Positions 7,271-41,186 of a stretch of 64,000 nt of DNA are shown here, piece after piece. Position 1 is the stretch's first letter. Each line of letters starts with the position of its first letter. Position numbers and translations under genes: made by a program. The stretch covers positions 1,936,117-2,000,116 of the forward strand of contig NW_003314261.1 of assembly GCF_000143415.4 (NCBI RefSeq). Reading direction: 5' to 3'. The notes beneath the pieces were generated by a model. That model saw only the letters and a program-made list of their open reading frames with translations. It did not search any database and was not told where the DNA came from. This stretch comes from Selaginella moellendorffii (taxonomy: Eukaryota > Plantae > Lycopodiophyta).

Positions 7271-7497
7271 ACAATCAGGCTCCAAGGCCAAGACCACTAG
7301 TAGCACAGAATATTGAGGTGGAAATTGACGAATCCCAAACTTTTGAAGAACCAGCAATATGAACTATCACGAGACAACAATACAAGTATCAGCAACCAGA
7401 TAATCTGGAAGAACAAGATTACAATGATGAAGTTGAAAGTATCCCAAAAACTGAATGGAAGAAAAGCAAGAAAATACTTCAAGCAATTCAGGCTGAA

Positions 7498-9666
7498 TTG
7501 CAGGAACAAGAACCACAGGTCATCGAAGACCATAACAAACAATCCAACGATCAAGGAACAACAAGTTTCTCTCAAGAAGAGCACACCTCACTTGCAGAAC
7601 AAATACTGCAACATGGAATCACATTAACCTTACAACAAATACTTCAAATAGCACCATATCTTAAGAGCCAAATACTTAAGATTTGTTGTCCACAAATTCC
7701 TGATGCTCGCACTCAAGAAAAGCAATTTCCATGTAAATCTGAGAAAGAGGATAAAGTAAAAATCCAACTTGGAGATTACGATGATAATGTACCTTGTATT
7801 GACCTCAACATAGGCAAGAATCAAATCACTGGAGCAATACTCGATGGAGGCTCGGGCGTGAATATAATCGAGCATGGTATATGTAAAACAATGGGACTTG
7901 GACCCATACAACCTACTCCCTTCAATGTCCGCATAGTAGACCAACATGTTGTAAGACTAGCTAGCATAATAAGAGATATCACCATTAGAATCAAAGGACA
8001 CAAGTTCAAGATCAACTTTGTGGTATTAAAAATGCCAATTGAAGAATCCTCTTACGAACTCTTGCTTGGAAGACCATAGCTGAACAAAGCGGTTTATGCT
8101 CAATATTGGATGGACCATGAAATTTGTATACAATCAAACAAAGGTCAAACAAAAATAGCTACAACTACAACCAGGAAAATTCCGAAAAGATTTCAACCAA
8201 TTCAAGCCCAAGAATACAATTGGCAAGAAGGTTTTGACGACCTTGAAGAAGCCAAACTCCTTGAAACTTACCCAGAGCTACGAGCTTTTCAAGAAATTGA
8301 TTTACACCATGTTCTACCAGTAGTGGATCAAGACCAACACCACAACTTAAACTTGATGGACCAACCACTCTACTCTACAAAGCTACACGCTCAAAGTCAA
8401 CAAAGATTAAAGATAAAACAACAAAACGAGAAGCCAACTCTCAAGCCTGAACAATTACAATCTAAAGAATACAATATTCAGATTGATGATAATCCAGCCC
8501 TACAAACTAGAAATGACGACTTTACACCCCGAATTAACCTCAATGAAGAAACTGAAGAACTCAATCTCGGACTTCAAGAAGATCCACACAACATAATCAT
8601 TGCTGCAAATCTTGACAAAAACTTCAAGATCAAAGCTCAACAATTACTCATAACCTACAAGGACATTTTTGCCTGGTCATACAAAGATCTCAGGGGAATA
8701 CCACCGGAACTATGTACACATCGCATAAAGTTGCTACTAGGAACTCGACCAATTAAGCAAACAGCTTATCACATGAACCCAAACTTTGCTGATAAAGTCA
8801 AAACAGAACTCCACAAACTACAAAATGCTGGATTCATTTACCCTATCAAGAATGCACAATGGTTGTCACCATTGGTTATCATCCCGAAGATGAACGGCAA
8901 ATTGCGAATTTGTGTCAATTACAAAAAGTTGAATGATGTGACGGAAAAAGACTCATTTCCCATACTATTCTCAGACGAGATACTCAACACAGCTGCAGGA
9001 CATGAGATGTATTCATTCCTCGACGGATTTTTGGGATATAATCAAGTTCATATAGCGCCAGAAGATCAATACAAGACTGCCTTCATAAGTCCATGGGGCG
9101 CATATGCATACTCCAGAATGCCATTCGGATTAACAAATGCACCATTTACTTTTCAAAGGATAATTACCAACACATTTCAGGAATACTTGACTGATTTTAT
9201 ATGCGTCTTCATGGATGACTTCAGCATTTTTGGAGCAAAAGAAAAACAACTTGAACACTTAGAAAAGTGTTTCATTAAATGTCGACAAAACCGAGTTGCA
9301 CTTAATCTAGAAAAGTGTATTTTCTTTGTCAAATCAGGAATACTCCTTGGCCATGTCGTTTGTAAAGACGGAATTCTCATTGACAAAACAAAAACAGAGG
9401 TCATCGTCAAAATGACTCCACCCATGGATTTAACGAGTTTGAGGAGATTTCTCAGAAAAATGGGTTACCATAGACATTTTATTCAAGACTATGCAAAGAT
9501 TGCTAAATCGCTTATGGAGCTACTTAAGAAATCTCAAGTTTACGCATGGACACAAGATTGCCAACTGGCCTTTAACACACTTAAGGATAAGCTTATAAAA
9601 GCCCCCATACTGGTTCAACCAGACTGGACACAAGAATTCATTGTACAAGTAGATGCATCTGATTAT
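7498..9666 (+). pseudogene. pol: pol 5' part: aspartic protease, reverse transcriptase, start of RNase H
   Basis: AILDGGSGVNII (protease); [22 protein letters not shown] and FMDDF (RT). VDASDY is cut by the DNA transposon. Confidence 0.95.
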
Positions 9667-9690
9667 AAGCTCTATTTCGTTAAAGTGGGA
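9667..9690 (+). repeat. Left terminal inverted repeat
   Basis: aagctctatttcgttaaagtggga. Confidence 0.95.
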
Positions 9691-11305
9691 TTTATTCAGT
9701 AAAATGGGACTAGGTACAAATTTTCAAGTATTTGAAAATGATGTGAAATTATATGTTTTTTGTCCAGGGGCTAGACATATCTGGGGCATGGTGACTAGCG
9801 CGGTGACTTTGTGTCCAGACTGAGTCCATCTGGTTGTATAATAAATCTCATTGTCAAGGTGAACAAGCCGAATCTGAAGCTAAAGAAGAGCGATGGCATG
9901 CGCACACACACTATTTGTTTGTTCATTGAGCGTGTGGTGAGCTTTCCAAGATGAACGTCATTCCTATTAGCCAGACATATAACTTAATGGTGAGAAAATT
10001 TAGATATTATTCAATGTTATCTTTTTCTAGCGAATCTAACTGTGAAGGTGTAGCAAGAGGCATTGCTAGTCTGGAGAAGTCATTTAACTCATTTAACCCT
10101 TAGTGTATTTTTATGAAACTAAATAACATTCATATTATTAAGGAATTTCTCTAATACCTTTTTTTTACGACATAGAGGCTTGCATTTCTTTCAAAGGTGA
10201 TTTAGTAAAAGGCCTGAGGGCACATGCCATTCTATTTCTCAGACCGGTATTAAGATATACTAGTGCAAAGGGAAAAAGGTATTTGGTGATCAAGTAAATG
10301 GCATGAGGGCACCCGCCATTATAAGCTTAAGCGCTAGTGGACACCTCCTTTTTGGTACTCTTAGCGGTACTATCATCCTTCTCCGGGTCAGTTGTTTTGC
10401 TTTGGATTGTTGTCTCTGATGTTACTGGGGCGTTCTCAATAGTTGTTAATGTTGCCGTTTGTTCAGAAAAATGATCACCTAGAGTATAGTACGGGGAGTT
10501 TGGAAGACTTATATATTTTACATCTTCACCTATCTCCTTCTCCGTCTCCTTTTCTGCCTCACTTATAGATTTTGTGCTTGCCATGAGAACGCTCTTCACC
10601 CTAAAATATGGAGTTCGTTGTGTTATAAAAGGAAACCAACACACACGCTACAAGGGAATGATGGTACATAAAGCACGTAAGCCCACAATATGGGTTTATG
10701 TGCCATTAATATGGGCCACACGCCATATTATTAGATTTATGCACGTGTGATTGGTAAATGCATATGTCACATCATCTTTGTTTTACCTCACACACTATAT
10801 CAGGCCTAATGAACCATATCACATGTGCGCACATGCTATATATATGGAGAAGTATTATGCAAGGATAGAAAAATTCAATGCATGATTGTGGAGAGCAATG
10901 GCATGATGGCATGAAGCCACATGCTAAATAACATTTTAGAGAAAGAATTAAAATAGAAACATGCAAACAGTATTGAGTGGACCAAGATTTAGAAGTGCAC
11001 AATTGAATGAGGTATTTCTAATAAATATTTCACTCACCTCATATAGGAATGGCTACCACTCTCAAATGGTGTATCGCCTCATGCCATCACCTCGCAATTT
11101 GTTATAACAATCCGATGAATTCATATTCGGCTTGTTCACCTTGAACTTTAAGTAAGATTTGCTAGAACAACTAAGAATTTATACTTGTTATTTGTATCAT
11201 CTCACCTAGGAATGGCGTAAGGCCACATGCCATCACGCCTCCTCTGATTCAGATTCGGATTGTTCACCTTGAAATAAAATACATTAGAAACTTAGTAAAG
11301 GAATA

Positions 11306-14300
11306 TTAATGAATCTCACCTTGAACCCGGGTTATGAATGCTCTTGCTGCATCTCTTGCATGGTCTGGCAAGGTGATGGTGGCACTCTGCTTCCGCATCC
11401 AACCATGCACAACATTATCCACCGATATACTCATGCTGGGATCCCTTGGATTCAGCACCCATATCTTTTCTAGGCAATCCTTCGTATATCCGGAACTTGG
11501 CTTGAACCACTCCACAGTTACATTGAAGGAGTTAGTTTCCGCGTCCTCCTCTGCATCAGTGATGCAGCGCCCCACCCATATCATTTGTTTTTTATTACTG
11601 GGTCTGACAAGCACGACCATTCCTTTGCAGACCTGTACTGGATTGAATGCTGAATCCGGCTTCTTGTTCCTCGGCCCACAATAGTGATCCTCAACATCAT
11701 TATCTGTCACTGCATTTCCAGAGGACATTGTTCCGCTACTATCTGGTGCTCTGGGTTCTGGCCAAAAGGACTCTTCCAATTCTTCATATACAACCGGCCC
11801 ATTTTGGATAGCAGATATAATCTTCTCCCAGTATTCGAGCAAAGGCTTGCACCTTTTAAAATAGGATTCTCCACCAAACACCAACCCCCTCTTCCAGAAG
11901 GCAATATGCTGTCTAATCCCGGCCACTATACTTTCCTGGTCTTTGAGTCCATCCGGGTGCATCGGCCGTGGAGAACCCTGAGGAATCATAGGTTCCCCAG
12001 TTATGGGATCTCTCTTGAAGAGTTCAATGCCGTCCACTGGCAGCCACACTGTGTCCCATTCTCTCATCTTGTACCTCATCACTAGAGCACCATCACGCAT
12101 GCTGAAATGAAACTGAAGAGGCTTGGAGTGGCCAATTAGCGTTTCGGATCCGTCCCTGATGTAGCCTCTTACAAACCCCTTAAAGTCTAGGACCTCTGTC
12201 ACAAGTGCAGTTTCAACAGTGCCTTTGATGCAATTTTGGAATTCATCGTAGAGTTGTGGGAGGGTGAGGACATTGGATCGCCAGAGGGACTCTGCCAGGT
12301 GAGTAACATGGCATCGACGTCTTCATGAGTGTGCCCAACCATGAGAAAGCCAAGTGTAACTGTTTCAAATATGCCTTTGGCAACAAGCATCGCCAAGTAC
12401 GCGAAGACGTACATGTTTTTGTTCTCACTGCCAGCATTGTCTGTTTGGAGTAGAAGATGGGGTGGAAGGCCACATCGGCCGTAAGAACTTCCTTGAGATT
12501 CTGCTTCGTTTGGATGAGGCTGTGCATTCATCGGGCGACCAGCCTTGTCGGAATGGCATGAGGCCTCACGTGATAACCCTACAATCTGACGGCCAACATA
12601 TTCACTGGGATGGCATGGGGCCCCACGCGATGCTGCAAGCCTTTGCTCCTCCTCCAGTTGAACCCTGTATGGGGTTCGATCGACAAGGGCCTTATACAAG
12701 GGTTTGCCGTTCAGCTCAGTCTGCGCACTTTGCAGAGACCTTAAGTGTTTTGCTAGGGACGCAATCATCATGTTTGCACCCCCGCCACCCCATAGAGGTA
12801 CAAAGAAGTTCCCATAGTTCTGGGCACCATGCCCATGAGCGATTATGCCAAATAGAGACACAAGCAGCTGCATGGATGAAGAGATTGCCTTGGGGGTAGG
12901 ATTGAGTCGAGGTAAGCACGTCTTTTTCTGGTCCATTTTGTCATGGATGATGCAGAGGTAAGAGTCAAGTCTCTCCATGGAGAGAATCCTGTTATGATAA
13001 TATGCAGTCCTACAGCTTCTCTGCTTGATGTTCTGGTCGAGCCGCCTTTTAACCAACGTCTCTCGCTCTTGAGCGCTGCAAGAATTCTTCGACAAAGCCA
13101 TTTTGATAGCAGTGCACTCGTCACACTTTGAAAAGCTGGAGTACTTTCCTATATTCACATCCCTGAACCTGTTGCTCCACAATCTACTAAATCTAGATTG
13201 GCTCAGCTTCCTGTAGCCATTACTCTGGAGTTCCCGATTCACATCTTCCAATATGGCCCCCTTGGTATACATGGAAGGGAGAACTCGTTGGGTGTCTCGT
13301 GTTCCATCTTCCAAGAGGCGGGTTTTATGTGGTTGCTGCTCGCTACATGTCTCGACAAACCTCTTGAAGATTGCCTCTCCATATACAACATGACCCCTGG
13401 TTTTGTGCGTACCGTCGTTCCCATGGACTGCCTGTTGAACCCTTTGTTCCTCGAACTCAGTTTTGATTCTGTAGAATGTGGTTCGAGGGACTCCATAAAT
13501 GATTCTCCATGCCTTCATGCAGACCAAACCCCTCTGGAAGACCATGCCCCCCACCTGATGTTCTAAAGCATCAACAGATGACCGTAATGCCTCATACACA
13601 AAATTGCGAGCTGCCTTCCAGGACAATGTCTTGTATCTTGCTCTCTCCTCTTCAATAGCATCCCAATTAGCATGTTGACAGCACCTCCTCTTGCAACAAG
13701 CAACTGTCGAGACCATTCGAACCTCCATCACCATTTTCTACCTTTTCGGTTCGTTGCTCAGATCCCTTTGGCTGCGCTTTAGGAAGGTGTACTTTCTTTT
13801 CCCATGAAGAGATGTTCTGTCATCAGTTGTAGTGGTGTTTGATTGTGAATCCTTCACATTCTCAAACACTAAGTGCCTCAATTTCCACCGCACAATGCTT
13901 CCAATAGTCAGATTGTTTTCTTCTGTGTCAACAACCTCTAAAATCGCAACTCCAATATCATCCCAGCCCAATTCTTGATTAGCAACCGCATCTCTTGGAT
14001 CGACAACTGTGGCTAAGCCCTCAGCTACTAGCTCCCCCTCGGGGTTGTTTAGAAACACCTTTGCCTGAATCCATGTAGCACGGTTCTTAAGATCCACGGA
14101 GGGAACATGCATCGCACTTGTGCTGTCCTCAACATCTGCTTTCTTCTGAAGATTTTTCAAGGCAACAACAACATTTACCCCGATGACCATCTCTCCTCAT
14201 TCAATAGCGACCACATTCCCATCGAAGACAGTCTCTACTGATACAGCAGCATTGCCTTCCCCAAGCCTTTCACAGTGTATAACAAAGTTTCGATCCATAG

Positions 14301-14373
14301 ACACAAGGGTCCCTTTTGCAACTCTCTTCCCACCATTCAAAATGTAAACCTTTTCCCCAACCCTGAAGGCCAT
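11306..14373 (-). pseudogene. Sola-like DDD transposase (about 1,020 codons reconstructed; two stops and one frameshift)
   Basis: ATG at 14373 is in frame with ORFs 13738-14190 and 12199-13734 across stops at 14197 and 13738. Motifs: CCKRRC, FSKCDEC, HDKMDQKK, LQTDNAGSENKN and FLMVGHTHEDVDA. A 1-bp loss near 12305 joins it to ORF 11306-12202 (...HLAESLWRSNVLTLPQL...VTEVLDF). Confidence 0.85.
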
Positions 14374-14869
14374 TCTGAAAGTGCAGAAAAGAAGTTAAGA
14401 CCATACAAAAAATGATTGGAGAATGGCCTAAATCATAACATACCAAACAACCTCAATAGCATGAGGCCACATGCCATTATTCAAACATGCTATTGACACC
14501 CACGTGAAATTTCGCATTCACAAAATTGGTATGAGCCCTCATGCCATTAGTGGTACCACTAATGGCACCATGTGTGCGTGACTAGTCACCCATACAAAAA
14601 TATATACAGTTGCAGCAAGGCAAAAGGAATATAGCAACAGGCTAGCAGGGGCCAAAGATGGCATGAGGCCTCATGCCATCTTGATATACACACAGCTGTA
14701 GGCAAGTAAAAACATACATGACAATACGCTAGCCATGAAATTGCAAGGGCCCAAGATGGCATGTGGCCTCATGCCATTTCTAAATGTGGTCCTAAGCCAT
14801 TCCATGGTGAACATACCAGGAAGCACAAGTGCCGAATATCAAGAGGAAGCGGTAGCCACACCAAAGACA

Positions 14870-14990
14870 GTGCCGCTCGCAACACCACAACTACTCGTAA
14901 CGCCGCTCGCAACACCGCAACTGCTCGTAGCGCCGCTCGCACAAACTGCCATTCGTATAAACTGCCGCTCGCAATGGCGCTCGCAATGCT
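14870..14990. repeat. GC-rich tandem repeat with a roughly 30-bp unit (gccgctcgcaacaccrcaactrctcgtarc)
   Basis: gccgctcgc recurs at 14872, 14902, 14932 and 14964, upstream of the transposase start. Confidence 0.8.
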
Positions 14991-15778
14991 ACAACCGCTT
15001 GTAGACGCATAAATCATAGCTCACAACGCCGCTTACACAAGCAGCGCTCACTGCGCTCAGCGGAACCAAGAACACGGCGCACAAAAATGATAGACCTAGG
15101 AATGAGTTCGAGAATTCAAAAATAACACACGCTTGAACGTCACATCAAATCCTCTGACAAACTAGATCTTATGATTCCTCTGACAAATTTCAAACTGAGT
15201 AGCTTCTAGACTTTGCTGTCGGAGGTTGAACTTTGTCACATCATGTCCTTGCCTCGATCCAGCTGTGCCATGTCATTGATTCGAACTTTGCCATGCCGTG
15301 TCAGCGATCCGCGCCAAGATTATTCGCCGTGTAAAGGAATAATTATGCTGTGTGTGTACGTCCATTTATGGCAATATAAGGCCACACGCCATTCAAAGAA
15401 TAATGCTAGTCGAGTATTTTTTGGTGCATTTTTTGGTTCAAAATTGCATGAGCCCACACGCTATAAAGTTTACCTGTACCAAAAATAGAAACAGCTTTAT
15501 TTACTTGGGAATTTAAGTGGTTGAGGCATTTTAAAACTTACAAACACATGCCCTACTTACATTCCTTTGGTTGCTTAAAATTCAAAAATATTATAAACCT
15601 TTCTTTTTGCATTTTTAATGTTTTCAATTATGGTTTTTGATTTTCGCAGGACCAGCCTAGTAATCTATTTGCATCCCGTTTGTCCCCTTCGCTAGCCTGA
15701 GATACATCTGCTCGGCATCTGCCTCTTACAGCATTTGCCCAGAAAGGGCATCTTTCTTCACGCAGCATTTGCCACATG

Positions 15779-15804
15779 TTTAGGGTTTAGGGTTTAGGGT
15801 TTAG
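15779..15804 (+). promoter_or_regulatory. Telo-box, (TTTAGGG)3.7, between the divergent genes
   Basis: tttagggtttagggtttagggtttag. A regulatory role is inferred. Confidence 0.6.
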
Positions 15805-16833
15805 CAATTCAGTAGCTTGATAAACATGCAAATACAGAACTTGATGCAAAATCCTTTGATATGTCACAATGCCCCTAGGACCATAAACACATTTCAATAG
15901 AGAGGGTCCTTTCATTTCATAACTCCTTACGTTGATCTTGGTGAAACTAGAGTTAGTGAAGTTAGTTTCTTGTGATCCCGCATCTGATTATGATGTCCCT
16001 TTGCAGTGTCGATGGAAAGGTCAATGCACACCAAACTGTAGAACCTTGGAGCAAAATAACGGTCAGATCTATGGCAAATGCCCCTGAAACATTGTAAGGC
16101 TCGTGTGGTCTCATGTGGTGTCCGATCGAGATGCTTCTTTGCAGGGTCATCAAGAAGGACATTGTATACCATTCTTTATTTAGCTGAACATCTGGCATTT
16201 TTGGAAATACAAGATGCTTTGGAATATCCAATCATGCATGGTATAAATATAGTGAGGGTATTAAATGATATCCCAATCATGATCTTTCTTTTGGATTTCG
16301 CGTGCATGCAGTCCGAGGAATGATGACGTTGCAGATTTCTTTTGGATTTCACGTGCATGCATGCGCGCGGCAATCCAGAAATTAATCGTGGCGCCCAAGT
16401 CCGAGGAATGATGACGTGGCGGGATTACCAACCGTCGTGACATTTCGTGCATGTGAGGTTAGGTTTTGCATTTTGCTTCATACTCGCGCTTGCACACTCG
16501 CGCTCGCATCGCGCTCCCACTCGCGATCATGCTCACATTCGCGCTCATCTACCTTCTCTACAGGTTTCTCGTGTGCATCGGCGTCCACTCGCGCTCGCAT
16601 TGCGCTCGTGTGCATCGGCATCCACTTCAAGACACACCCAGTTTGTAACTTCGCCGCCAACTCCGCCGCCCACTCTGCCACCCACATGCAGCCCACTTGG
16701 CGTCCCGGGAGATTTCAGTGCCACTCTCCAACTGTAAGTGGCAGAGTAGCCTTGCTGCTACGATCCGCTGCACACACAGTGCACATTCGCCAGCGAGTCC
16801 AGCCTCGATTGTCACGCCTCCATTCGGCTTCAA

Positions 16834-19800
16834 ATGGTAAGTCTTTTAGGCCAACTTGAAAATGGCATGAGGCCACATGCCATTCAGTAACAACATTGGC
16901 ATGCACCGATTGGGCTCTCGAATGTAGTCCGGTTACAGATGGCATGTAGCCTCACGCCATCTTAGGATGCAGCCTCAAGACATCTGATGCAGTGGTGAAT
17001 GGCATGTGGCCTCACGTTATTTCCAGCTGCTAGCTTTTCATCTGTCAGCTCTAATTGTTGTGCATTTCTGAACAGGCGAGGAATTGCGTTCTTCTTCCAG
17101 GAACTGTCAATGTGGATGCAGAGAAGGGGGAGGAGCTCACCAGTTGGACTTTCGGGATGGAAGGCAAGGATCTGAGGCTGTACAACACAGATGGTGGGAG
17201 AAAAGAATGCATGGGGATCCTCATCCAAGTGACAGACACTCCATGCAGTTCCATGCAAGAATATGGACTAGCACTTGTGGTAGAGACAGCATCCGCCTTC
17301 AAGATCCACCTTGCACATCCTAGCGGCTTCCCGGAGGGGGGCAGCTGCTATGAGGAATTCCTAGAGGGAGCTAGGGAGAGGTTGTCCAGGAGGCCCACAA
17401 TTTCAAAGACGCTGCGGGTCTATGAAGATCACATGGAATCTACGGACCTCACCTACGGCGATGTTCAAAAACTATATTCCAACATTGAGCCGTTGAGAGT
17501 GCCTCCAGTTCGCGAAGCGAAGGGGAAGGGGGTCGATCTGGAAACTACCCCGAAGCAGAAAAGGGTGGTCAAGCTCAAGCCGACGTCCGACTCTCTTGCT
17601 CCAAAAAAGAAGCTACTCGGTGATGCCATTGCCTCGGGTTCGAACACTACACCCACCAAAAAGAAGAGCCACAAAGAGCAGAAAGAGCAAGAAGAGGCAG
17701 CAAAAATCGTCGCAGATAATAGTACTTGTTACTATTCCAACAAAGTATATACAATCGACGTGAGCCGTATTGACATCCAAAGCAAATACAACCACAGGCT
17801 AGTATCTGATGAGTGGGTGGAGAAACTGAAGCAGAAGATGCTGGCAAGTCCAGTAACACCTGACATCGCAGACGTGATCCCCTACTACCGAACAATGAAG
17901 GGCGAGACGAGGTTTCTAGACTTGATCAATAGGAAGGTGTTGGACGATCAGAACATCCAGTTCTATGCCGTCTCCGGGCAGCATTCTAGCTTGGCGATGC
18001 AAGAGATAGTTGTGGATATTATGGTGGGCGAGAAGGTGAAGAAAGTCTTCAAGACAAGAGTTGTCCGCCTGATAAAAGGCAACTCGCCCCTCCGATCTAT
18101 CATATACATCTCCCACGCGCAGAATGTCAAGCAAGAAACGTGCTACAAATCGGGTCTGCACGAGACATTGGCACGAACACGGAAGCTCTGGGTTCAATTG
18201 AAGAAGCCACAAAAACCAGGACAAGGACGTGCACTAGGAACTAGCGCCTGGCAGGTAAGCCTCGTTGCATGTGGCATAGCATGTGGCCTCACGCCATTTC
18301 CATTGTAGGAATTCTCGAGTCTTCTCTCGAAAACACTGGGGGTCAATGACACACTCAGCATCCATAACATTCTGCTTGCGACAAAAGTTGTTTTTGACAA
18401 ATGGGTACATGTGCTGAGGAAGTACCATGACGGGGAGTTGCTAAACTCAATAGGTGTGGAGGACGGCCAGAAGCCCAATGATTTGAAGCTCAACGCCTTG
18501 CGTTTCTCGTGGTCTCTAGACGACGACGACCTTCTAACAGTGGCTAATGCTCTTTTACGTGGTGAGGTAGTCTTCAACAAGACCAAAATGACTCCCGGCC
18601 ATATTGTGACATACGAGGACTTGTGCACGACTCTGAGAGCTCGTGCGCTATTGAAGGATTGGATCTTCGAGCAAGTGGCCGTGGAGAGGGTGAGCATCGA
18701 CACCACGCAAGAGATGATGGAAGCGCTGGAGTTGTCAAATGAAGACATCGATGAGTACGTGAAGGGGGCCCTCAAGTTCATCGATCTGCTGCGGGATGCC
18801 ATGAAAAGTAAAGCTGAGAAGTTGGATCAGTATCCAAATTTCATTAAGAGGGATGTCGACCGCCGGCTTCAGAAACAGCCCGACCCCACAGCAGAGGCCT
18901 ATCGAGAACCTTACCGGGTATACGTGAATTCGGATGAGGATCAAAGGTGGAGGAGCATCGTTTCCCGCGGATATGAGCAGTTCAAGAACATCTTTTGTGT
19001 GATGGACTTCACAAACGAGGAGATCACTCATGCAGACAAAGTCAGCTCCATCATTGACTTAATGGTGGGACTTGCAGAGGTGGAATCTTCAGTCCACTAT
19101 ATGATCTACAACTCCGAATCCTATCACAAGTTCTGGAAGGCCTTGAATGAGGTGAAGGCTCGGTTGAAAGGCAAGGAGATGCAGGAGATCCATGGGATAA
19201 TGGCTAAGAAGAAGATACCGACGAATGTCCGCATCTTCACACTCGCCCTTGTTATTGGTCCTGCAGCAGAGTGGGACTGGAGTGACTTCCCAGCTTCGTT
19301 CGACAAGGCCGATCGAATTGATCTGAGGGAGGTCAATTTACCCGTGCCTGAGGAACTGAAGACGGCTATGGAGGTTTCGAATCCAAAGAAAGCTCCAGGT
19401 GCAGCATGGGAAATGCTCAACTGGGTCTTCAACGCAATAGCGGGTGGGTCACCTGCTTCTGCCTCCAAGGGCAAATGCGTTCTCAAGTACAACTGCGGCG
19501 GACTATTCTTTCGAGCCGCACTACTCAAGGGTGTCCCGTGTGTTGCGGTGACAAACTCCATTGAAGAGGTGACTTCAATGGAGCATATAATTACAGTTGC
19601 CAAAGAAAAACAGTATCTTCTCTGCGAACCTAGTGAGTACGCACTTTAAGTTTAAATGTTATCTCACAAGCTCTGTATGCAGGAGCGTGGCCACCCCCAG
19701 ATGCTGAAACAGCGTTAACAGCTACTGTTGAAGATACCCATGTTGGGCCGAGCTCACAACCTGCACAAGGTAAGGTCACGTGAGGCCTCACGCCATTTTG

Positions 19801-22444
19801 ATTATAGATCGTTGTGAATATTCAGACACGAGGACTGAAAAGCGCACTGGTGGCGCGTCGAAAAAGGACAAACAGACAAGCAATAGGAAAAAAAGAGGTA
19901 CAAATTATATTTGCAATGGCATGTAGTCTCATGCCATTCCTTGCAGGAGACACTTCTTCAAAGGCAAAACAGGCAAGCACCAGCCAAGCTCAAACTGACA
20001 GTGGTCATAAAAAGCGAAAGCACGTTGGACAGTTGTCGGGATCAAAGGCGTTTGATTCGAAAAGGAAGAAGGGCAACGAAAAGATGATAGGTAATGCCTC
20101 ACGGTTATGGCGTGTGTGCTCATGCTATTCATTGCAGATCAAGGGCTGAGTGAAAGTAGCCAGTCACCACCTCCTGACTCAGACTCCTATGGCAGACTCC
20201 CCTTCCCCAATCTCAATGGAGAGGTACAATGGATGAGGGATGCTTTTCAAGTCAGGGCCACGTTTTTCTCATCTCGTCGTCTTCGAAGGATGCAAGAACG
20301 TGCAGAAACCATGTTAAGACAGTTGGGTGAGGATACGGTCCTAGGTCACGCACTAAAACAGGCTATGGATGTCTTGTATTTTGAGATGGAGACTCGGCCA
20401 GATGATTTTCCCAAGATGGTCCTGGAAGAACAAGCCATCCAGCCTGAGCAGCCTATGGAAGAAATGTAGGAGGGGGATGAGGAGCCAGAGAAAGATAATG
20501 AGCAGGAAGAGCAGAAGGACGAAAAGGAGGACAAAGAAGAGGAGGACGAAGAGGACTTGGATGGTCCTCACAATGGTGACGATCACAATAATGACGACGA
20601 CGATGATGACGACGATGGCCAGCCTGAGGTGGCCAAAGAGCAGCGGAGGAAGGTCATACAAGACAAACCATCAGGTAAATAATAGTACATCCATTCCTAA
20701 CCTTTTACCATTTCTAACATTGTCCATGTAGGTCGCAGAGCAAATGGTAAGTAGAGATTATTCAGTTGAATTTACAAACTCTAGCCTTTAGTGTCGAGGA
20801 AGGATAGTGCCAAGCAAGGGTCGAAACGTATGTCCAATCCTTCAGAATCAGCAGTGCACCCAAGTGATATCGGTCCTAGTTCCTCAATAGCAGTTGATGG
20901 TAAATACAGTATAGTCGATTCAATGTGCTAATGAGTTTGTTTTTAGTAGCCAGTAGGGAGGATACCATCTCAATCGAAGGGAGATATTTGGACATGCATA
21001 TGGATCCGCCAGTGGACTCTACTTGCCTGCAAGAGTCATCAGAGCTGGTGGAGGCTACTATCCATATCAACGCCAAGCAAGCTGACCACGCTCCACTTGA
21101 TGCTGCCCATACCACTGAGTCAATCTTGTCCACGTATCCAACTGACGGTGACCAGGCGCCATTGGACCCGCATGAGGCCGCCCCAGCCGCCGAGCCGGTC
21201 GTATCCTCATTTCCAACGGACTCAACGTGTGCCCAATCGTCTGACTACACGCCATTGGAACCTCCCTACACTGCCCCTGCTGCCTGTTCGGTCATGTCCA
21301 CTTTGCCAACGGAGGCACCAGCTGAAATGGCGTGTGATCACACGCCATCGGAACCACCCCATGCCACTGTTGAGCCAGTTGTACCAGAGTCTACAGCTGA
21401 AATGGCATGTGCCCACACACCATCGGATGCGATTGACCCCACATTGCAGAGGAGAGTATTTCCGCCCTTCACGTTTCCTCGACTAAAACCCTCTCAACGA
21501 CCTTCGGGAGCACCATTCGCTAATATTGTAAATGGTAAAATTGACTTGTACCATTTTTTATGCTGACGCATTTCATTTCAGAGTCACGGCGAAGGTACTA
21601 TATCGTTTTTTATCTGAACGGTGTCCTTTTCTCCCATGAGCGTGGCTCGTCCTCGAATTTCACTGCACCCTCCAAAGCCTGCGGTCGCAAGTTGGTCAAA
21701 AGAGACAGATTCACATTAATCACACGGGAGAAACTGCAGGATCTAATAATGACCATGCGACACTTAAAACAGAGGGCCGGGTTCAATTTGCAATTGGGAG
21801 TTTGGACATCCATGATGCGCCACAATGCATTAACGTTGCTACAGATGATGCACGATCAGACGCGAGTAATATTACCATTTGACTTTCTCCTAACGCAGGA
21901 GGATTGCTTGACTATGGTCCATGTGAGGGGTAGCAAGCCCATCTTTATCAAGCTAAAGGCTGTAGTGATGAACCGGACTGCTAGGTCAAGTGAAATCCTC
22001 ATCATCGATGACTCGCCGATTAAAACTGCAGCGAACACGCACACATATGCAGTGCACCCCATTTCTTGCAGTATGGAAACTAGGGAGAAGAAACCGTATG
22101 TTCTGGGGGACCTTGCAAAATGGCTTGGAGTGATGGTGATAGAGAACCGGCCAGTCCAGGAGGTGGCTGCAGAAATCAACCAAATGGCAGATGGAACGGT
22201 ATATCAGAAGCCATTTGATCGGACAGACACCAGTCATCATTTATGGCATGTATATTGTCTAGCCAAGCACTATCCGCATCTCCATAATCTGCTCAACCGG
22301 ATGGGTTCTTCGACCACTGAACATGAGCGTGGACGTATTAGAGAAGAGATGGCATTACTATTGGGTTTAAATCCTGATAGTGTGGAGAGTGATGAAATTC
22401 CAAGATTATTGTATAGGCGTTGGAGGCAAAAAATAACAGTCTGA
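16834..22444 (+). CDS. Multi-exon cargo gene (about 1,639 aa): ParB/Srx-like domain, degenerate amino-MTase-like region, acidic tract, FCP1/NIF HAD-like domain; one premature stop
   Basis: Manual GT-AG model with exons 16834-16836, 17076-18254, 18309-19632, 19683-19769, 19826-19897, 19947-20090, 20138-20674, 20732-20746, 20792-20899, 20947-21534 and 21582-22444. Total 4920 nt, with frame preserved at every junction, linking ORFs 17055, 18411, 19814, 20107, 20925 and 21560. A single in-frame TAG lies at 20467-20469. Exon 1 is the least certain. Confidence 0.78.
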
Positions 22445-22862
22445 GGTGGCATGTATTTATTTAAAAATGTAACTTATTATGGCATGGGGTTCCATGCCAT
22501 TGTATTAATATTAAAAGAAAATTCTTTGAGAGGATTTGCATTATACTAGAAGTGTTACAGCATGTTATTAGAAGTCTACAAAGTTGTTTTATTAATAAGG
22601 GGAAAGTAAAGATTGAATGGGGACTTGGGCTCCACCTAGACTCGGAGCAACTGAGCCAATATTAAAAGGATGGAAAGAAATTGGACGACGATGACAAGGA
22701 GAAGAGAGAGGTGAAGCAGTGGCAGGGGGAGGAGAAGTGATTGAGTAGACATTTCCTTGTTTAAAATAAAATGGCATGTGCCTCAATGCAGTTGAATTTT
22801 GTTATATTTATATACTATATAAAGGTTTGGAAACCTTATTTTACAAGTGGGATAATGACAAT

Positions 22863-22886
22863 TCCCACTTTAACGAAATAGAGCTT
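22863..22886 (-). repeat. Right terminal inverted repeat
   Basis: tcccactttaacgaaatagagctt, the reverse complement of 9667-9690. Confidence 0.95.
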
Positions 22887-22890
22887 TTAT

Positions 22891-24060
22891 GCACTTGGAG
22901 CTATACTTTGCCAAAGAAAAACTAATAATAGAGACTATCCAATATACTACGCAAGCTGCAGACTCTCCCCACCAGAGATGAACTATACAACCACGGAAAA
23001 AGAGGCATTAGGAATGGTCTATGCACTCACCAAATTTCAACATTACCTCCTTTCAAACAAAGTCAAGATCATGGTTGATCACCAAGCACTCTTACACTTA
23101 CTCAACAAGACAATACTCACTGGAAGAATTGCACAATGGTTTCTTCTACTTCAAGAATTCAACTTTGAGATTATTCACAAGCCAGGCAAACAACATATGC
23201 AAGCTGATCATCTTAGTCGACTTACCACGGGGGAACAAGTCACGAAATCCAACGATGACTTACCTAATTCACACCTTTTTAAGGTCACAACTCAAGGAAT
23301 GCTCCAAGATATTTACAAATTCTTGACGACAACCAAGATTCCCAATCACTACTTCACAAACAATCAAAGGAAACAATTCGTCTTGAGGACACGACGATAT
23401 TCAGTCGTGGGAGGCAAACTATATAAGCTTGGACATGACAACATCTTAAGAAGATGCATAGAATCACATGAAGAGATTAAGGATCTACTCGATGAAGCTC
23501 ATGCAGAACGATTAGGAGGTCATTTTGCCAAAGAAATTATGGCCAAGAAAGTGTTACAAGCTGGATTATGGTGGCCGACACTCTGGAAAGACGCCACTCA
23601 GCATTGTCAAGAATGTGATATATGTCAAAGAATGAAGTTTCCACCGAGGAAACAAACTCAGGAACTCAATCCAACAACAGCATTGGAACCCTTCCAGTGT
23701 TGGGGACTTGATTTTGTTGGACCTATAGCAAAAAGTAGCAAAGGAAATCAATACATTTTAGTCGCTACCGACTATATGACAAAATGGGCAGAAGCTCTCC
23801 CACTAAAGAAAGCCACAGCGAAAAATACAGCCAAGTTTCTCTATGAAACAATTATAACACGATATGGATTACCGCAAGAAATTGTTACAGATTGAGGAAC
23901 ACATTTTCTGAATGAGACCATCGACATTCTTGTTAAAGAATTTATCATCAACCATAAAAAGTCAACACCATATGTAGATGATGAAAAATTGCAAGTAGTT
24001 AACTTGAACAAATTGAAGATTTACAAGCAACCACAAGTGCTTCACACTATGGTGGAATAC
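22891..24060 (+). pseudogene. pol: pol 3' part: RNase H and integrase, internally deleted
   Basis: NYTTTEKEALGMVYAL; zinc finger H..GGHF..CQECDICQ; WGLDFVGP, ATDYMTKWAEA and EIVTD. The sequence jumps to the integrase tail after KSTPY near 23975. Confidence 0.92.
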
Positions 24061-31599: not shown

Positions 31600-34500
31600 C
31601 ACCAATTCCCGCAACTTCTGCGTCCCATGTCTCCTTTCTTTCACCAGACAATCAGGACTCAAGGCTCTGGTGCTACTGGACTCGGGTGCAACTTCCTGCT
31701 TCATGGACACGGACTTTGCTGCATGACATCACGTTCCTCTTTCTCCTACCATACGGGATTTGAGGGTTGAAGGCATCAGCGGGCATTTTGTGTCTCCATC
31801 TTCTGGACTTAGGGAAACGTTGCCCATTCAAGTACACATTGGGTCCACCGTCACCAATATCGCCTTCAACATCATCAATAGCAAGTCCTCCTTTGTGGTG
31901 CTTGGTCTTCCTTGGTTCCAACTACATCAACCTTAGATCTGTTGGAAGGAATTATAGCTCCTCTCTCCCAAATCACCATCTCCCACGGCTTTCCCTACTG
32001 TTCATCGAGTCCGAATCAGGAATAGTTCCCTAAAATCAAATCGGGGTTCTGTTCCTGACTCTACGAAGTTTTCACCCTCTTCTTTTTCCTCTCTTCCATC
32101 TTACACTAGACAATATCCTCATCTCATCATTCCATTTAGTTGTACGCCTTCTCCTATCTCCACAATCACTATGAAAGGACTCCTTCATGAAGAACCTCTT
32201 TTCCTTTTTGCTTTGCATGTTTTTCCTGTCAGTTTTCCTGAGAAGTATCATGATTTTGGGGATGTGTTTGACAAGAAAAAAGCTAGTGTCTTGCCTATTC
32301 ATCGGCCTTATGACTGTCCCATTGATTTACAGGAAGGAGCGTCACCTCCGTGGGGGCCTATCTACGGGTTATCCCCGTCCGAGCTTCAGGCCCTCAAAGA
32401 GTACGTGGATCAGAACCTTGCCTCGGGGTACATTCAGCATTCACAATCCCCAGCTGGAGCACCTGTCTTCTTTGTCAAGAAGAAGGACGAGAGTTTGCGG
32501 CTAGTCATCGACTACCGAGGTTTGAACAAGGTGACTGTTCGGAACCGTTATCCGATGCCCCTGATCTCGGACCTGTTGGAACGCCTCGGCGGTGCCCACT
32601 TCTTCACCAAGATCGACCTCCGTGGAGCATACAACCTAATCCGGATCCGGCCTGGTGATGAATGGAAGACTGCGTTCCGAACCCGCTATGGCCACTTCGA
32701 GTACATTGTCATGCCATTTGGCTTGACAAATGCTCCAGCAGTTTTTCAACACATGGCAAAGGACATCTTTCGGGAGTTTCTTGATCAGATGGTGATCGTC
32801 TACCTCGATGACATCCTCATCTACTCAAAAACTCAGGAGGAGCACGACGAACATGTACGTAAGGTGCTAGCAAAGTTGTGAGAACACGGCCTATACGCGA
32901 AGCTTGAGAAATGTTCCTTTGATCAGCAGTCTGTGGAGTTCCTTGGGTACATTGTCACTCCTGAGGGTATCACGATGGATCCTGCCAAAGTCAAGACTAT
33001 TCTCGAATGGGAGCTTCTCCAATCAATGTCGGACGTTCAGGTTTTCCTTGGCTTCGCCAACTTCTATCGCAAATTCATTGATCACTACTTTGACATTGTC
33101 CTTCCTCTCACGCATCTCACTCGCAAGGATGTTCCCTTCTCTTGGTCTACTGCTGCCCAGCAGGCCTTTGACACACTCAAGGCGGCCTTCAGTTCTGCTC
33201 CCGTCTTGATCCACGCTGATCCCTCACAACCTTTCTTCATCGAGGCTGACGCCTCCGACTTTGCCATTGGTGCTGTGCTGTCTCAACTCGGAGCGGATCA
33301 AGAATTTCATCCAGTCGCTTTCCATTCTCGGAAATTCCAGCCGGCGGAGATCAATTATGAAATCCACGACAAGGAGCTCCTTGCTATTGTGGATTCCTTT
33401 GGAGAGTGGCGTCGTTTCTTGGAGGGGGCAGGCCATCAAACAACGGTCTGAACGGATCACAAAAATCTCGAGTACTTTGCCACTTCCCGAGTTTTGAGCC
33501 GTCGTCAAGTAAGGTGGGCACAATTCCTGAGTTGGTTTGACTTTGTTATCAAGTACAGACCTGGAAAGCTTCAAGGCCTTCCTGATGCTCTTTCAAGGCG
33601 CTCCTATCTCAGTCTCAGGCCTGGTAATCCTGCCTTCGATCAACAAGATCAAGTTATCCTCAGTCCTGATCGGCTTCAAGTTATGGCAATTTCCCTGGCC
33701 CCTTAGGACACCTCCTTGATGGATGCGATCAGAAACGATCTTCAATTTGATGATCTCGCCAATGACATTTTCCCCCATCTTCAGGCTGGACACCAAGTGA
33801 CTCCCGACTGCCAGCGATTTGAAGAGTTTGAGTTCTTAGATGGCTTATTGTACCTTGGGGAGCAGCTTTACGTTCTTGAAGGTGATGCTCGAAGGTTGGT
33901 TCTGATGGCGTGCCACGATAGCCTGACTGCTGGTCACTTCGGCATTGCGAAAACCTATGAGCTGGTTGCACGGGATTTTTTGTGGCCTCACATAGATGAC
34001 TATATCAAAGCCTTTGTTACCTTCTGTGACACTTGCGCTCGGAATAAGGTACCTCGTCACCTTCCTTCAGGTTTGTTTCGATCCCTCCTGGTCCCTTCAG
34101 GTCCTTGGAAATCCATCTCCATGGATTTCTTGAGTGATCTTCCTAGTTTTGGAGGCTTTAACAACATTTTAGTTGTGGTGCATCGCTTCACAAATATGGC
34201 GCACTTCCTGCCATGTACCAAGGAGTTTTCGGGTGAGGACATGGCAAAACTGGTATTCAGGGAAATTTTCCGACTTCATGGGATTCCTGCAGATGTGGTT
34301 TCGGATTGGGGACCTCAGTTTATCTCTCATTTTTGGCAATGGTTTTTGCAACTGCTAGGAGTGAAGGCCAACCTCTCCTTAGCATATCATCCTCAAACTG
34401 ATGGACAGTCCGAGCGAACGATTCAGACGTTGGAACAATTCTTGAGGTGCTTCATCAACTATCATCAGGATAACTGGTTCGATATCCTTCCCCTTGCTGA

Positions 34501-35266
34501 GTTCTCCTATAACAACTCTATTCACTCCTCTCTTCAAGTTTCCCCCTTCTTTGCGAACTCTGGTCGAAATCCTTGATTTAATCTCTCACTTCCTTCTCCA
34601 TCCGACTCCTCTTGTTCAAATCCCCACTCTGAGGCATTTGTCTCCAACCTCCAGGAAATCCACAACTCCATCTCCTTCCATCTCCATCGTGCTCAGGAAT
34701 CTCACAAAACATTTGCCAATATCCATCGTCAGGATTGTCCCCCTTACAATATCAGGGATAAAGTCTGGCTCCTCAGGAGAAATATCTCCACCACTAGGCC
34801 CTGTCCAAAACTCGATTTCAAATGCCTTGGTCCATTCCCTATCACTGCCATCATTAATCCTGTCACTTATCACCTTGCACTTCCTTCCTCATATCAAATT
34901 CACCCCGTTTTTCACTCCTCTCTCCTTGAGCCTTATATTCCCAGTCCTATTCCAAATCGGGTCATTCCTCCACCTCCACCAGTGCAGCTCGAGGATGGGT
35001 CTGAGTACGAGGTTCAAGACATCCTTGATTCCAAGATTTCACGGTCTAAACTCTACTATCTGGTCGATTGGAAGGGGTATGGACCTGAGGAACGCACTTG
35101 GGAACCTGCGGACAACCTGATTCATTCTCTTGACCTTGTTCAGGACTTCCACCACCGCTATCCTTCTCGTCCCAGTCCCCATTCTTTTTCTCCATCTCCC
35201 ATCCCTTGCCGCTCATCTCATCCTCCTCTTTGTTCACGTTCACATCCTCGTTCCTCTCGTTCTTGA
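31600..35266 (+). pseudogene. pol: Chromovirus pol with C-terminal chromodomain
   Basis: [54 protein letters not shown] and YEVQDILD...YLVDWKGYGPEERTWEP. Confidence 0.93.
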
Positions 35267-39314: not shown

Positions 39315-39700
39315 TGATTACAGCTTATTTTGATGGTGCTTTCTGCCCCAAAAACCAGGTTGCCGGCATTGGAGTTTGGATGATTGATTCTGCGGAGAAC
39401 AAAGTAGCCGACCTCTCTATCACTTTGCCAGCAACATCAGCTAATGAGGCAGAGTACTTGGTGGCTATCAGTGCCATGAAGTTGGCCACAGATCTCAAGT
39501 TTAGGCGAGTTACCTTCATTGGGGATGCAGAACTGATCATGCGCCAACTTACTAGAGAATACCAAGTCCGTAAAGAGAACCTGAAAGAGCTATAGCAGCG
39601 GGTGGTCAACCTGAAGGATGAGTTCTCCCAGATGACTTTTCAAAGTGTCCCTCATGAAGAAAACTTATGGGTAGACAGGTTATCACATCAAGCAATCACC
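39315..39700 (+). pseudogene. Additional archaeal-type RNase H (aRH) domain between protease and RT
   Basis: AYFDGA...AGIG...NEAEY...IGDAELIMRQL...VPHEENLWVDRLS. Confidence 0.9.
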
Positions 39701-41186
39701 ATGATGCGAGAGGTGAAAGGCACTCCCTACTCTTTGGTTTCTAGGGTCAGGGAGGAATCAAAGATAAATGAGCCCCCTAAGCCCAAGGTTTCTCCAGACT
39801 TTAAGGTTCATGCCGTTTTCTTGGGTGATGACAAGGACCAGGTCTTTATCGCCACATCACTTGCTTCAACAAACGCAGCAAAGCTCTTGGATCTCCTCCA
39901 CTGTTTCAAGGACGTGTTTTCTTGGGACTACAGCCAGCTTCTAGGAGTTCCCATGGACACAATCATGCATAGTATTGTGCTTTTAGAGATAGCCAAACCA
40001 GTCCGTCAAACGATGCGGCGTTTCAGCCCGGCAGCTCACTCCGAGATGAAGTTGGAGATCAAGCGACTTCTGGCAGCCAGCTTTATTTACCCTTTGGAGA
40101 GCTCAGAGTGGGTGGCCAATCTCATCCCTGCATGCAAGGCAAATGGAAAACTCTGCCTCTGCATTGACTTTCAAGACTTGAACAAGGCAACTGCAAAATA
40201 TCACTTTCCAACTCCATTTATCAATGCAATTGTAGATGAGATGACTGGACACCATTACTACTCTTTCATGGATGGCTTTTCAGGGTACAATCAGATCTTC
40301 ATTCATCCCAATCATCGAGATCTTATGGCCTTCCGAACACCTTGGGGCGTCTTCGCTTTTAACATCCTCCCTTTTTGCTTGTGTAACACCGGAGCTACCT
40401 TTCAGCACTTTATGACCCACGCCTTTCATGACTTAATTGGAGACGCCTTGAGGGTGTATATGGTTGATCTGTGCACAACCTCTGACTCCTGTGAGGACCA
40501 CCTTGTCCACTTGGAGCATATCTTCACTTGCTACCGACAACACAGGTTTTTATTGAACCCAGCAAAGTGTAAATTCGGGGTGAGTGAAGGCCAGTTGCTA
40601 GGCTTTGATGTCTCACAGGATGGGATCAAGCCCCAGGTAGTCAAGGCTCAGGAGATTCTGGATTGGAACCCACCAACCAACTTGAAGCAGCTTCGCAGCG
40701 TCCTCAAGCAAACGGGTTTCTTTCGCCGTTTCCTCCACAACTATGCTGCACATTCACGGCCTCTGATAGCTTTGCTACAGCACAACATTCCATTTGTTTG
40801 GGGTGAGTCCCAGCAACAAGCCTTTGAATCACTGAAGCAGTCACTTCGCATGGCCCCGGTACTCCAACCACCAGAGCGACAACTTCCTTTCGACATCTAC
40901 ATCACAACGGGTACAGCGGCTTTTGGAGTATGTATTTGCCAATGTTCACAATCTGGCAAGCCACCACATGCAACATACTATGCTTCACATTCGTTCAAGG
41001 AGACTGAGAAGAAGTACGTGGATGCGGAAAAAGAAGTAGTGGCTGTTGTTTACACCTTAGAGCGATTTCGTCATTTTCTCGCTGGAGCCTATATCCATTT
41101 CCACGTCTATTTTAATGTGTTGACCTTTCTTTTACAGTGACTGGTTCACAGTCTTCATTCTTTATCTTGGATTGTGACTATCCAAG

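Follow-up and report, generated by a model that had tools for sequence, protein, structure and literature searches.

A Sola-like transposon of Selaginella moellendorffii carries 25 dispersed copies of a 22-bp palindrome and a gene for a predicted ParB-fold protein

Results

A transposon with two divergent genes

We analysed a 64,000-nt stretch of the Selaginella moellendorffii genome (contig NW_003314261.1, positions 1,936,117 to 2,000,116; hereafter the window, numbered from its first letter). It contains a whole DNA transposon of 13,220 bp (9667..22886), delimited by 24-bp terminal inverted repeats (TIRs) at 9667..9690 (plus strand, perfect) and 22863..22886 (minus strand), and flanked on the plus strand by a 4-bp target site duplication (TSD), TTAT, at 9663..9666 and 22887..22890. 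Within the element lie a broken transposase gene on the minus strand (11233..14373) and, divergent to it, an accessory gene with about 10 predicted introns on the plus strand (16834..22444). Dispersed across both genes and their surroundings are 25 copies of the palindrome ATGGCRTG-N6-CAYGCCAT, which are the main subject of this work. The insertion interrupts a Ty3/Gypsy pol gene in its RNase H region, with positions 1-41 of Pfam RT_RNaseH_2 on the left of the element and positions 38-100 on its right.

The palindrome is element-specific and has a fixed geometry

A first-pass annotation made from the letters of the window had described about 25 dispersed copies of this palindrome between 9893 and 22500, with constant arms around a 6-bp centre of variable sequence, and had read them as parS-like operators for a dimeric protein. 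Searching with up to three mismatches, we recovered 25 copies, all between 9893 and 22792; 24 of them fall in the interval first described and the 25th is at 22771. Enrichment was assessed within the window, by comparing the element with the other 50.8 kb. Matches inside and outside the element numbered 7 and 0 (exact), 14 and 0 (at most one mismatch), 22 and 0 (at most two), 25 and 0 (at most three) and 26 and 6 (at most four). Element-sized Markov-3 simulations (n=200) yielded 0.6 matches on average and 3 at most, and the expected enrichment was thus borne out. A weak 26th copy at 15371 reached a position weight matrix (PWM) score of 12, versus 2.5 for the top site outside the element. In a metagenome scan with the exact motif, 118 loci were found, of which 101 have a single site (at most three mismatches) and one is a simple repeat with 17 overlapping matches; by blast, none of the 118 matched the element or any of 25 related proteins.

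Good half-sites that face each other at a distance of at most 30 nt form 18 pairs, 15 of which have a spacer of exactly 6 nt, in agreement with the length first noticed. The centre proved not to be free in sequence: of the 50 half-sites, 44 have A or T at position 9, 44 have G at position 10 (1.4 bits) and 34 have G at position 11. Half-sites are 11 bp long, and the full consensus reads ATGGCRTG-WGGCCW-CAYGCCAT. The two arms vary independently at their variable position, and in 10 of the 25 copies the combination does not pair (A-C or C-U mismatches). This independence and the broken pairing favour a reading on duplex DNA over an RNA hairpin, as the operator interpretation had assumed.

The variable arm dinucleotide is CA in 32 half-sites, CG in 13, TG in 3, TA in 1 and CC in 1. 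Decay of methylated CpG from ATGGCGTG had been put forward as the source of this variation. Such decay predicts roughly equal numbers of CA and TG, and in view of the excess of CA (P about 4e-7) we reject it as the origin; CA is therefore the normal form of the arm. With CA as the normal form, the methylation-sensitive binding that had been deduced from decay no longer follows. Rather, the T that is tolerated takes the place of the methyl group that 5-methylcytosine would carry, which suggests that binding would be methylation-tolerant.

The flanks of most copy pairs are unrelated (on average 13.1 of 50 positions identical, against 12.6 for random sequence), with 2 of 600 comparisons above the 99.9th random percentile. 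With flanks so unlike each other, it is the 22 bp themselves that are conserved. The X1 contig that covers the copies at 12553 and 12610 has 13 differences, and the 11 of them that are listed all fall outside the motif. The first-pass annotation had named as its own refutation an independent micro-element with TSDs of its own. This candidate was rejected, as the 25 copies show no excess of flanking direct repeats, and the unrelated flanks speak against a plain repeat as well. Common flanks were found for the pairs 21327/21402 and 9893/11212 and, more weakly, 14658/14756 and 10209/10298. A few palindrome pairs arose through local duplication, and variants of the family gain or lose copies as segments running from motif to motif.

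The copies avoid predicted coding DNA

Seven palindromes occupy the left arm and the transposase 3′ region (9893, 10209, 10298, 10818, 10906, 11066 and 11212; span 9893..11233), and two lie in a hypervariable insert of the transposase coding sequence (12553 and 12610; span 12553..12631). Five more, together with the weak copy at 15371, span 14456..15464 (14456, 14526, 14658, 14756 and 15443); the first four are held by a 5′-untranslated region (5′-UTR) intron of the transposase gene, predicted from splice consensus at 14375..14816 on the minus strand. Predicted intron 1 of the accessory gene (16837-17075) has three copies (16862, 16939 and 16999; span 16862..17020), and four short predicted introns contain one each (18276, 19775, 19916 and 20107; span 18276..20128), three of these palindromes ending 9-11 nt ahead of the 3′ splice site. 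Two copies fall in a tandemly duplicated low-complexity linker (21327 and 21402; span 21327..21423) and two follow the accessory gene near the right end (22479 and 22771; span 22479..22792). On the predicted gene structure, the clusters and the presence of copies in introns and exons are as originally described.

Predicted coding DNA makes up 60% of the element and is overlapped by 4 of the 25 copies, compared with 15.4 expected in a rotation test (P about 0.001). These four are the two in the single hypervariable insert of the transposase core and the two in the duplicated low-complexity linker. Predicted introns accommodate 11 copies: four in the transposase 5′ intron, three in accessory intron 1 and four in the short introns. 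The top PWM scores belong to the copies in the first predicted intron of each gene, 5-7 kb inside the element. Of all 25, the two copies nearest the ends (227 and about 95 bp away) score lowest (20.5 and 15.6), and no copy lies inside the TIRs; the palindromes are not ordinary subterminal repeats, as had already been recognized. The largest gap between copies measures 1,846 bp. Even spacing of the clusters was marginal in a post hoc analysis (P 0.045 for the coefficient of variation of the gaps, 0.20 for the largest gap).

The accessory gene encodes a predicted ParB-like fold and two further domains

The accessory protein consists, in this order, of a ParB-fold domain, a helical region, a methyltransferase-like domain, a low-complexity linker and a NIF-like domain. 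The predicted exons at 17076-20674 join in frame with one stop, and further breaks are present in this copy. The nearest named homologs come from the liverwort Riccia sorocarpa and from Diphasiastrum complanatum and, together with plant-type telomere words, suggest a seed-free land plant as the host. The same architecture is found in Riccia proteins P0019 and P0022-25: five Riccia proteins have ParB-like and then methylase-like parts, and in four a NIF part follows.

The N-terminal domain (17712..18251, plus strand; 15 homologs at E ≤ 0.001) is predicted to have a ParB/Sulfiredoxin (Srx) fold. The model, obtained at a mean predicted local distance difference test score (pLDDT) of 85.5, retrieved Noc (E 2.3e-4) and ParB (E 2.1e-3) with Foldseek. 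A VIA structure comparison gave Z 9.8 for PadC (root-mean-square deviation (rmsd) 6.2, 121 residues aligned) and Z 9.1 for KorB (rmsd 2.8, 94 aligned); its top 8 rows were all of the ParB/Srx type, and unrelated rows reached Z ≤3.7. Sequence searches were negative: the ParB-fold region had no match to Pfam ParB, a word-based search with this region alone returned 0 of 441 candidates, the ParB alignment, run against PDB sequences, met with 2 chance matches only, and a search of PHROGs with 9 proteins gave a best E of 0.006. The exon that follows the domain was modelled at a pLDDT of 33.7. Several homologous open reading frames (ORFs) on unannotated contigs stop just past the ParB domain, at the predicted intron 2 site (18251-18255), which suggests that the position of this intron is conserved.

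A degenerate beta-class N6A/N4C methyltransferase-like region (18970..19632, plus strand, approximate limits) aligns with the Riccia homologs, of which 5 of 5 match PF01555 without reaching its gathering cut-off (E 6e-4 to 0.02). A profile that includes these homologs matched M.RsrI at E 5.9e-5, in the C-terminal S-adenosylmethionine-binding part only, and the methyltransferase-like exon of the window itself had no Pfam match to PF01555. Beta-class methyltransferases carry DPPY-type and FxGxG catalytic motifs. The window reads YNCGG where Riccia reads FFSGG, and no DPPY-type word was seen in the aligned region. The last domain is a degenerate NIF/FCP1-like phosphatase domain (21583..22444, plus strand; PF03031 at E 6.5e-4, below gathering; alignment with the NIF domain of Riccia at E 2e-14). 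The DxDxT motif of FCP1/NIF phosphatases is replaced by FYLNGV in the window and by LDVEGL in Riccia. Counting Box II of the ParB fold, discussed below, all three accessory domains look degenerate.

A Sola-like transposase and a recently spread family

The transposase gene was recognized by its DUF7869 domain (Pfam PF25273, E 1e-25) and by a tblastn match at 11339-14373, and has 19 homologs at 29-40% identity. This copy is broken; its defects include a frameshift near 12304, at which the X1, X2 and X4 contigs differ by a 1-nt indel. The short last exon is predicted. That predicted exon, together with the adjoining palindrome, has two further occurrences, a tandem one and an inverted one close to the left end (9854-9915, 11066-11145 and 11211-11272). 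Three Asp motifs are conserved in 9 of 9 aligned transposases, with a D2-D3 spacing of 42 in all, and probably represent a catalytic DDD (three-Asp) triad. We presume that the GHT motif of the DUF7869 transposase links it to Sola. The transposase and the 4-bp TSD fit the description of the Sola superfamily, which combines a 4-bp TSD, TIRs and a DDD transposase (PMC10741241), and we class the element as Sola-like, Pfam DUF7869 being the sole database label. The TTAT duplication departs from the AWWT target preference that is a hallmark of Sola1 (PMC3845634), in a sample of one site and three one-sided AT-rich junctions.

These three junctions were found in X4 contigs, where other ends of the element lie at 9667, 9669 and 22884. 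X2 and X4 contigs span 30 of 30 bins of the element, mostly at 95-99% identity or better. Given such close copies and the three further junctions, the contig comparison indicates that the family is mobile and has spread recently. Among the listed differences (40 of 215), this copy mostly has A/T where the other copies have G/C, a bias that would fit deamination of methylated DNA. The X4 junctions at 9667-9669 and 22884 suggest a subfamily in which the second base of the TIR is altered at both ends. In addition, X2 and X4 contigs contain a joint from 9710 to 22845 that skips nearly the whole element; it may come from a short non-autonomous derivative or be an effect of TIR similarity.

Other features of the window

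Between both genes, three tandem TTTAGGG units (15779-15799) form a telo-box-like sequence beside CpG-rich stretches (observed/expected CpG about 0.95), in what is likely the divergent promoter region. The left arm has an open frame of 106 codons on the minus strand (10327-10647), acidic and of low complexity, which may be one exon of a small third gene. Upstream of the accessory gene, a 40-nt stretch (16731-16770) attracted about 170 reads of RNA run X8 that run into unrelated sequence on both sides. The continuation of these reads resembles large-subunit rRNA, and the stretch may be a captured rRNA fragment; Rfam gave no rRNA report for 16731-16770. The rest of the window is made of nested Ty3/Gypsy-like pol fragments (7363-9666, 22891-23895, 31958-35266 and 39596-41140, the last two judged by eye), and a gap of 100 N lies at 45788-45887.

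Discussion

A proposed role for the palindromes

The element carries an element-specific 22-bp site that keeps its geometry and avoids predicted coding DNA, and its accessory protein has the architecture of a set of liverwort proteins. We lean towards the view that the 25 palindromes are putative binding sites of a dimer of the accessory protein, which would both mark the element as self and control transcription of the two divergent genes. Reading would take place on duplex DNA, with one dimer to a pair of 11-bp half-sites. Control would operate at the best sites, those in the first predicted intron of each gene, and the remaining ones would coat the element with at most 1.85 kb between neighbours. 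Judging by the apparent degeneration of the Box II arginine, methyltransferase motifs and phosphatase Asp residues, the protein would act as a binder or scaffold, and neither as a CTP clamp nor as a writer of methyl marks. The outcome would most likely be protection from host silencing, as for VANC; the alternative sign would be self-repression of the KorB type.

Several observations weigh against this proposal. The arginine of the Box II GxxR is missing: Box II reads SGQHS in the window, and GQHS or GQHT occurs in 21 of 21 sequences, the equivalence being deduced from fold and position. According to PMC12704722, this arginine is required for nucleoside triphosphate binding, so that its loss in all 21 makes a CTP sliding clamp unlikely; other invariant arginines might replace it. 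Fold matches at scores similar to those of ParB include Srx, SerK and SbnI, which do not bind DNA. After the ParB domain no DNA-binding domain was found, and Atlas TM scores of 0.41-0.46 to ParB/Noc clusters stayed under the bar. A DNA-binding domain can be missing entirely in phage ParB-like activators, and ParB-like partners can function with neither the conserved NTP residues nor a recognizable DNA-binding domain (PMC13229309). The introns of both genes are predictions. Finally, one RNA run (X8, 12% read) gave 198 reads, nearly all of them partial matches on the 40-nt stretch mentioned above and next to none over the genes, and this copy has many transition differences from other copies; therefore nothing points directly to anti-silencing.

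Other explanations of the palindromes

The palindromes could instead be binding sites of the transposase, used for pairing of the ends or for transposase-driven transcription of the element. They are element-specific and two of them lie close to the ends, and an Arabidopsis Mutator transposase, acting by itself, activates cognate copies sequence-specifically (10.64898/2026.08.24.746577). Against this, the TIRs have no copy, the end-proximal copies are the weakest and the best are deep inside the element, and a conserved ParB-fold gene would be left without a role; we judge this explanation unlikely. A host factor of transcription or chromatin, recruited for expression of the element through the palindrome as a composite site, would account for the clustering of the strongest copies in the predicted first introns. 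Parts of the palindrome may also resemble plant E-box/G-box-type words. Yet 22 informative bases are long for a plant factor, and with no copy at up to three mismatches in the 50.8 kb outside the element a host factor appears very unlikely.

An action in RNA, as a small hairpin or a branch-point cassette that aids splicing of short introns, is less likely again. It agrees with the 11 copies in predicted introns, with the three that end just before a 3′ splice site and with the folding of good copies at -11 to -13 kcal/mol, but not with the mismatches at the variable position in 10 of the 25 copies, nor with the 14 copies outside predicted introns and the 4 of 9 accessory introns examined that have no palindrome. 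Rfam, moreover, reported no family at gathering score; three weak matches to microRNA precursors, far under it, were produced by two adjacent palindromes. The smallest probability of all falls to a relic origin, in which the copies would have no function and be left over from local duplication or from an independent micro-element. A few pairs do have common flanks and family variants do gain and lose motif-to-motif segments; however, the near-random flank comparisons, the lack of a direct-repeat excess and the retention of the motif but not its flanks largely refute it.

Relation to known systems

The accessory-protein proposal has its closest counterparts in algal transposons. Sola1-1_Ec32 of Ectocarpus (PMC12477816) is likewise a large Sola-type element, in which the opposite strand to that of the transposase carries a gene with ParB-like and N4C/N6A methyltransferase parts, and its authors propose that the ParB-methylase protein binds and modifies its own element. 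The element described here differs in its plant-type host, its extra NIF-like domain and its degenerate catalytic motifs; moreover, the main text on Sola1-1_Ec32 names no binding motif, whereas here there is a 22-bp site in 25 copies. The red-algal Plavaka genes PAG3/PAG2 (10.1101/2025.02.11.637652) resemble our system in having a ParB-like accessory gene on a giant DNA transposon and inverted repeats as proposed sites. They belong to the EnSpm superfamily, however, with ParB fused to a 2-oxoglutarate oxygenase and the methylase in a separate gene, and the PAG3 repeats form tandem arrays beside the gene, unlike the palindromes here, which are scattered over introns and variable inserts of coding sequence. 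Iyer 2016 described further ParB-linked methylases of algae, and, in the part seen, the accessory architecture of this element is not among them.

In layout, the element is also like Arabidopsis VANDAL21/VANC21 (PMC5735166), in which an element-encoded accessory protein goes with a family-specific motif in introns and non-coding parts, partly multiplied by local duplication. VANDAL21 is Mutator-like and its motif is a 9-bp, non-palindromic one in tandem repeats; homology is not claimed. For VANC21, motif binding and demethylation have been shown (PMC5735166); here both would be putative, by analogy.

The bacterial systems ParB-parS, Noc-NBS and KorB-OB (PMC7333895, PMC12704722, PMC11790492, consulted in part) share the predicted N-terminal fold and dispersed palindromic sites, and differ in having the GERRxRA/GxxR arginine, which is absent here, where the site is 22 bp long and the gene is eukaryotic, with predicted introns. 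A scan of 7 ORFs of the element, which took in neither its shorter ORFs nor the genome of the host, found no ParA. As the Box II test failed and neither a helix-turn-helix nor ParA was established, we do not count the system as a member of ParABS. The term parS-like, used for the palindromes at first, thus holds as an analogy, through the predicted ParB-fold protein that the element encodes, and fails for the Box II arginine and ParA.

Our literature search, which did not extend to Repbase, to Iyer et al. 2011 or to supplements of the algal papers, met with no transposon of land plants that combines dispersed palindromes and a ParB-like gene. Algal transposons were already known to carry ParB-methylase genes with inverted repeats next to them; within that search, a land-plant-type element with a defined, element-wide site appears to be new.

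A bolder extension, which we regard as doubtful, is that transposons of seed-free plants possess a prokaryote-derived self-recognition: a ParB-fold pseudoenzyme, with a dead methylase and a dead C-terminal domain phosphatase-like domain, would read a family-specific 22-bp palindrome every 1-2 kb, even inside the transposase frame and methylated or not, and so reactivate silenced copies, as a second plant anti-silencing system independent of VANC. Two algal genome papers of 2025 proposed, without a test, that ParB-like accessory proteins bind and modify their own transposon. With its sharply defined 22-bp candidate site, its recently spread close copies and its relatives in a sequenced liverwort, the present element makes the algal proposal testable. 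If the proposal is true, it would give plant transposons a second route of self-recognition besides VANC, together with a sequence-specific binder of a long site.

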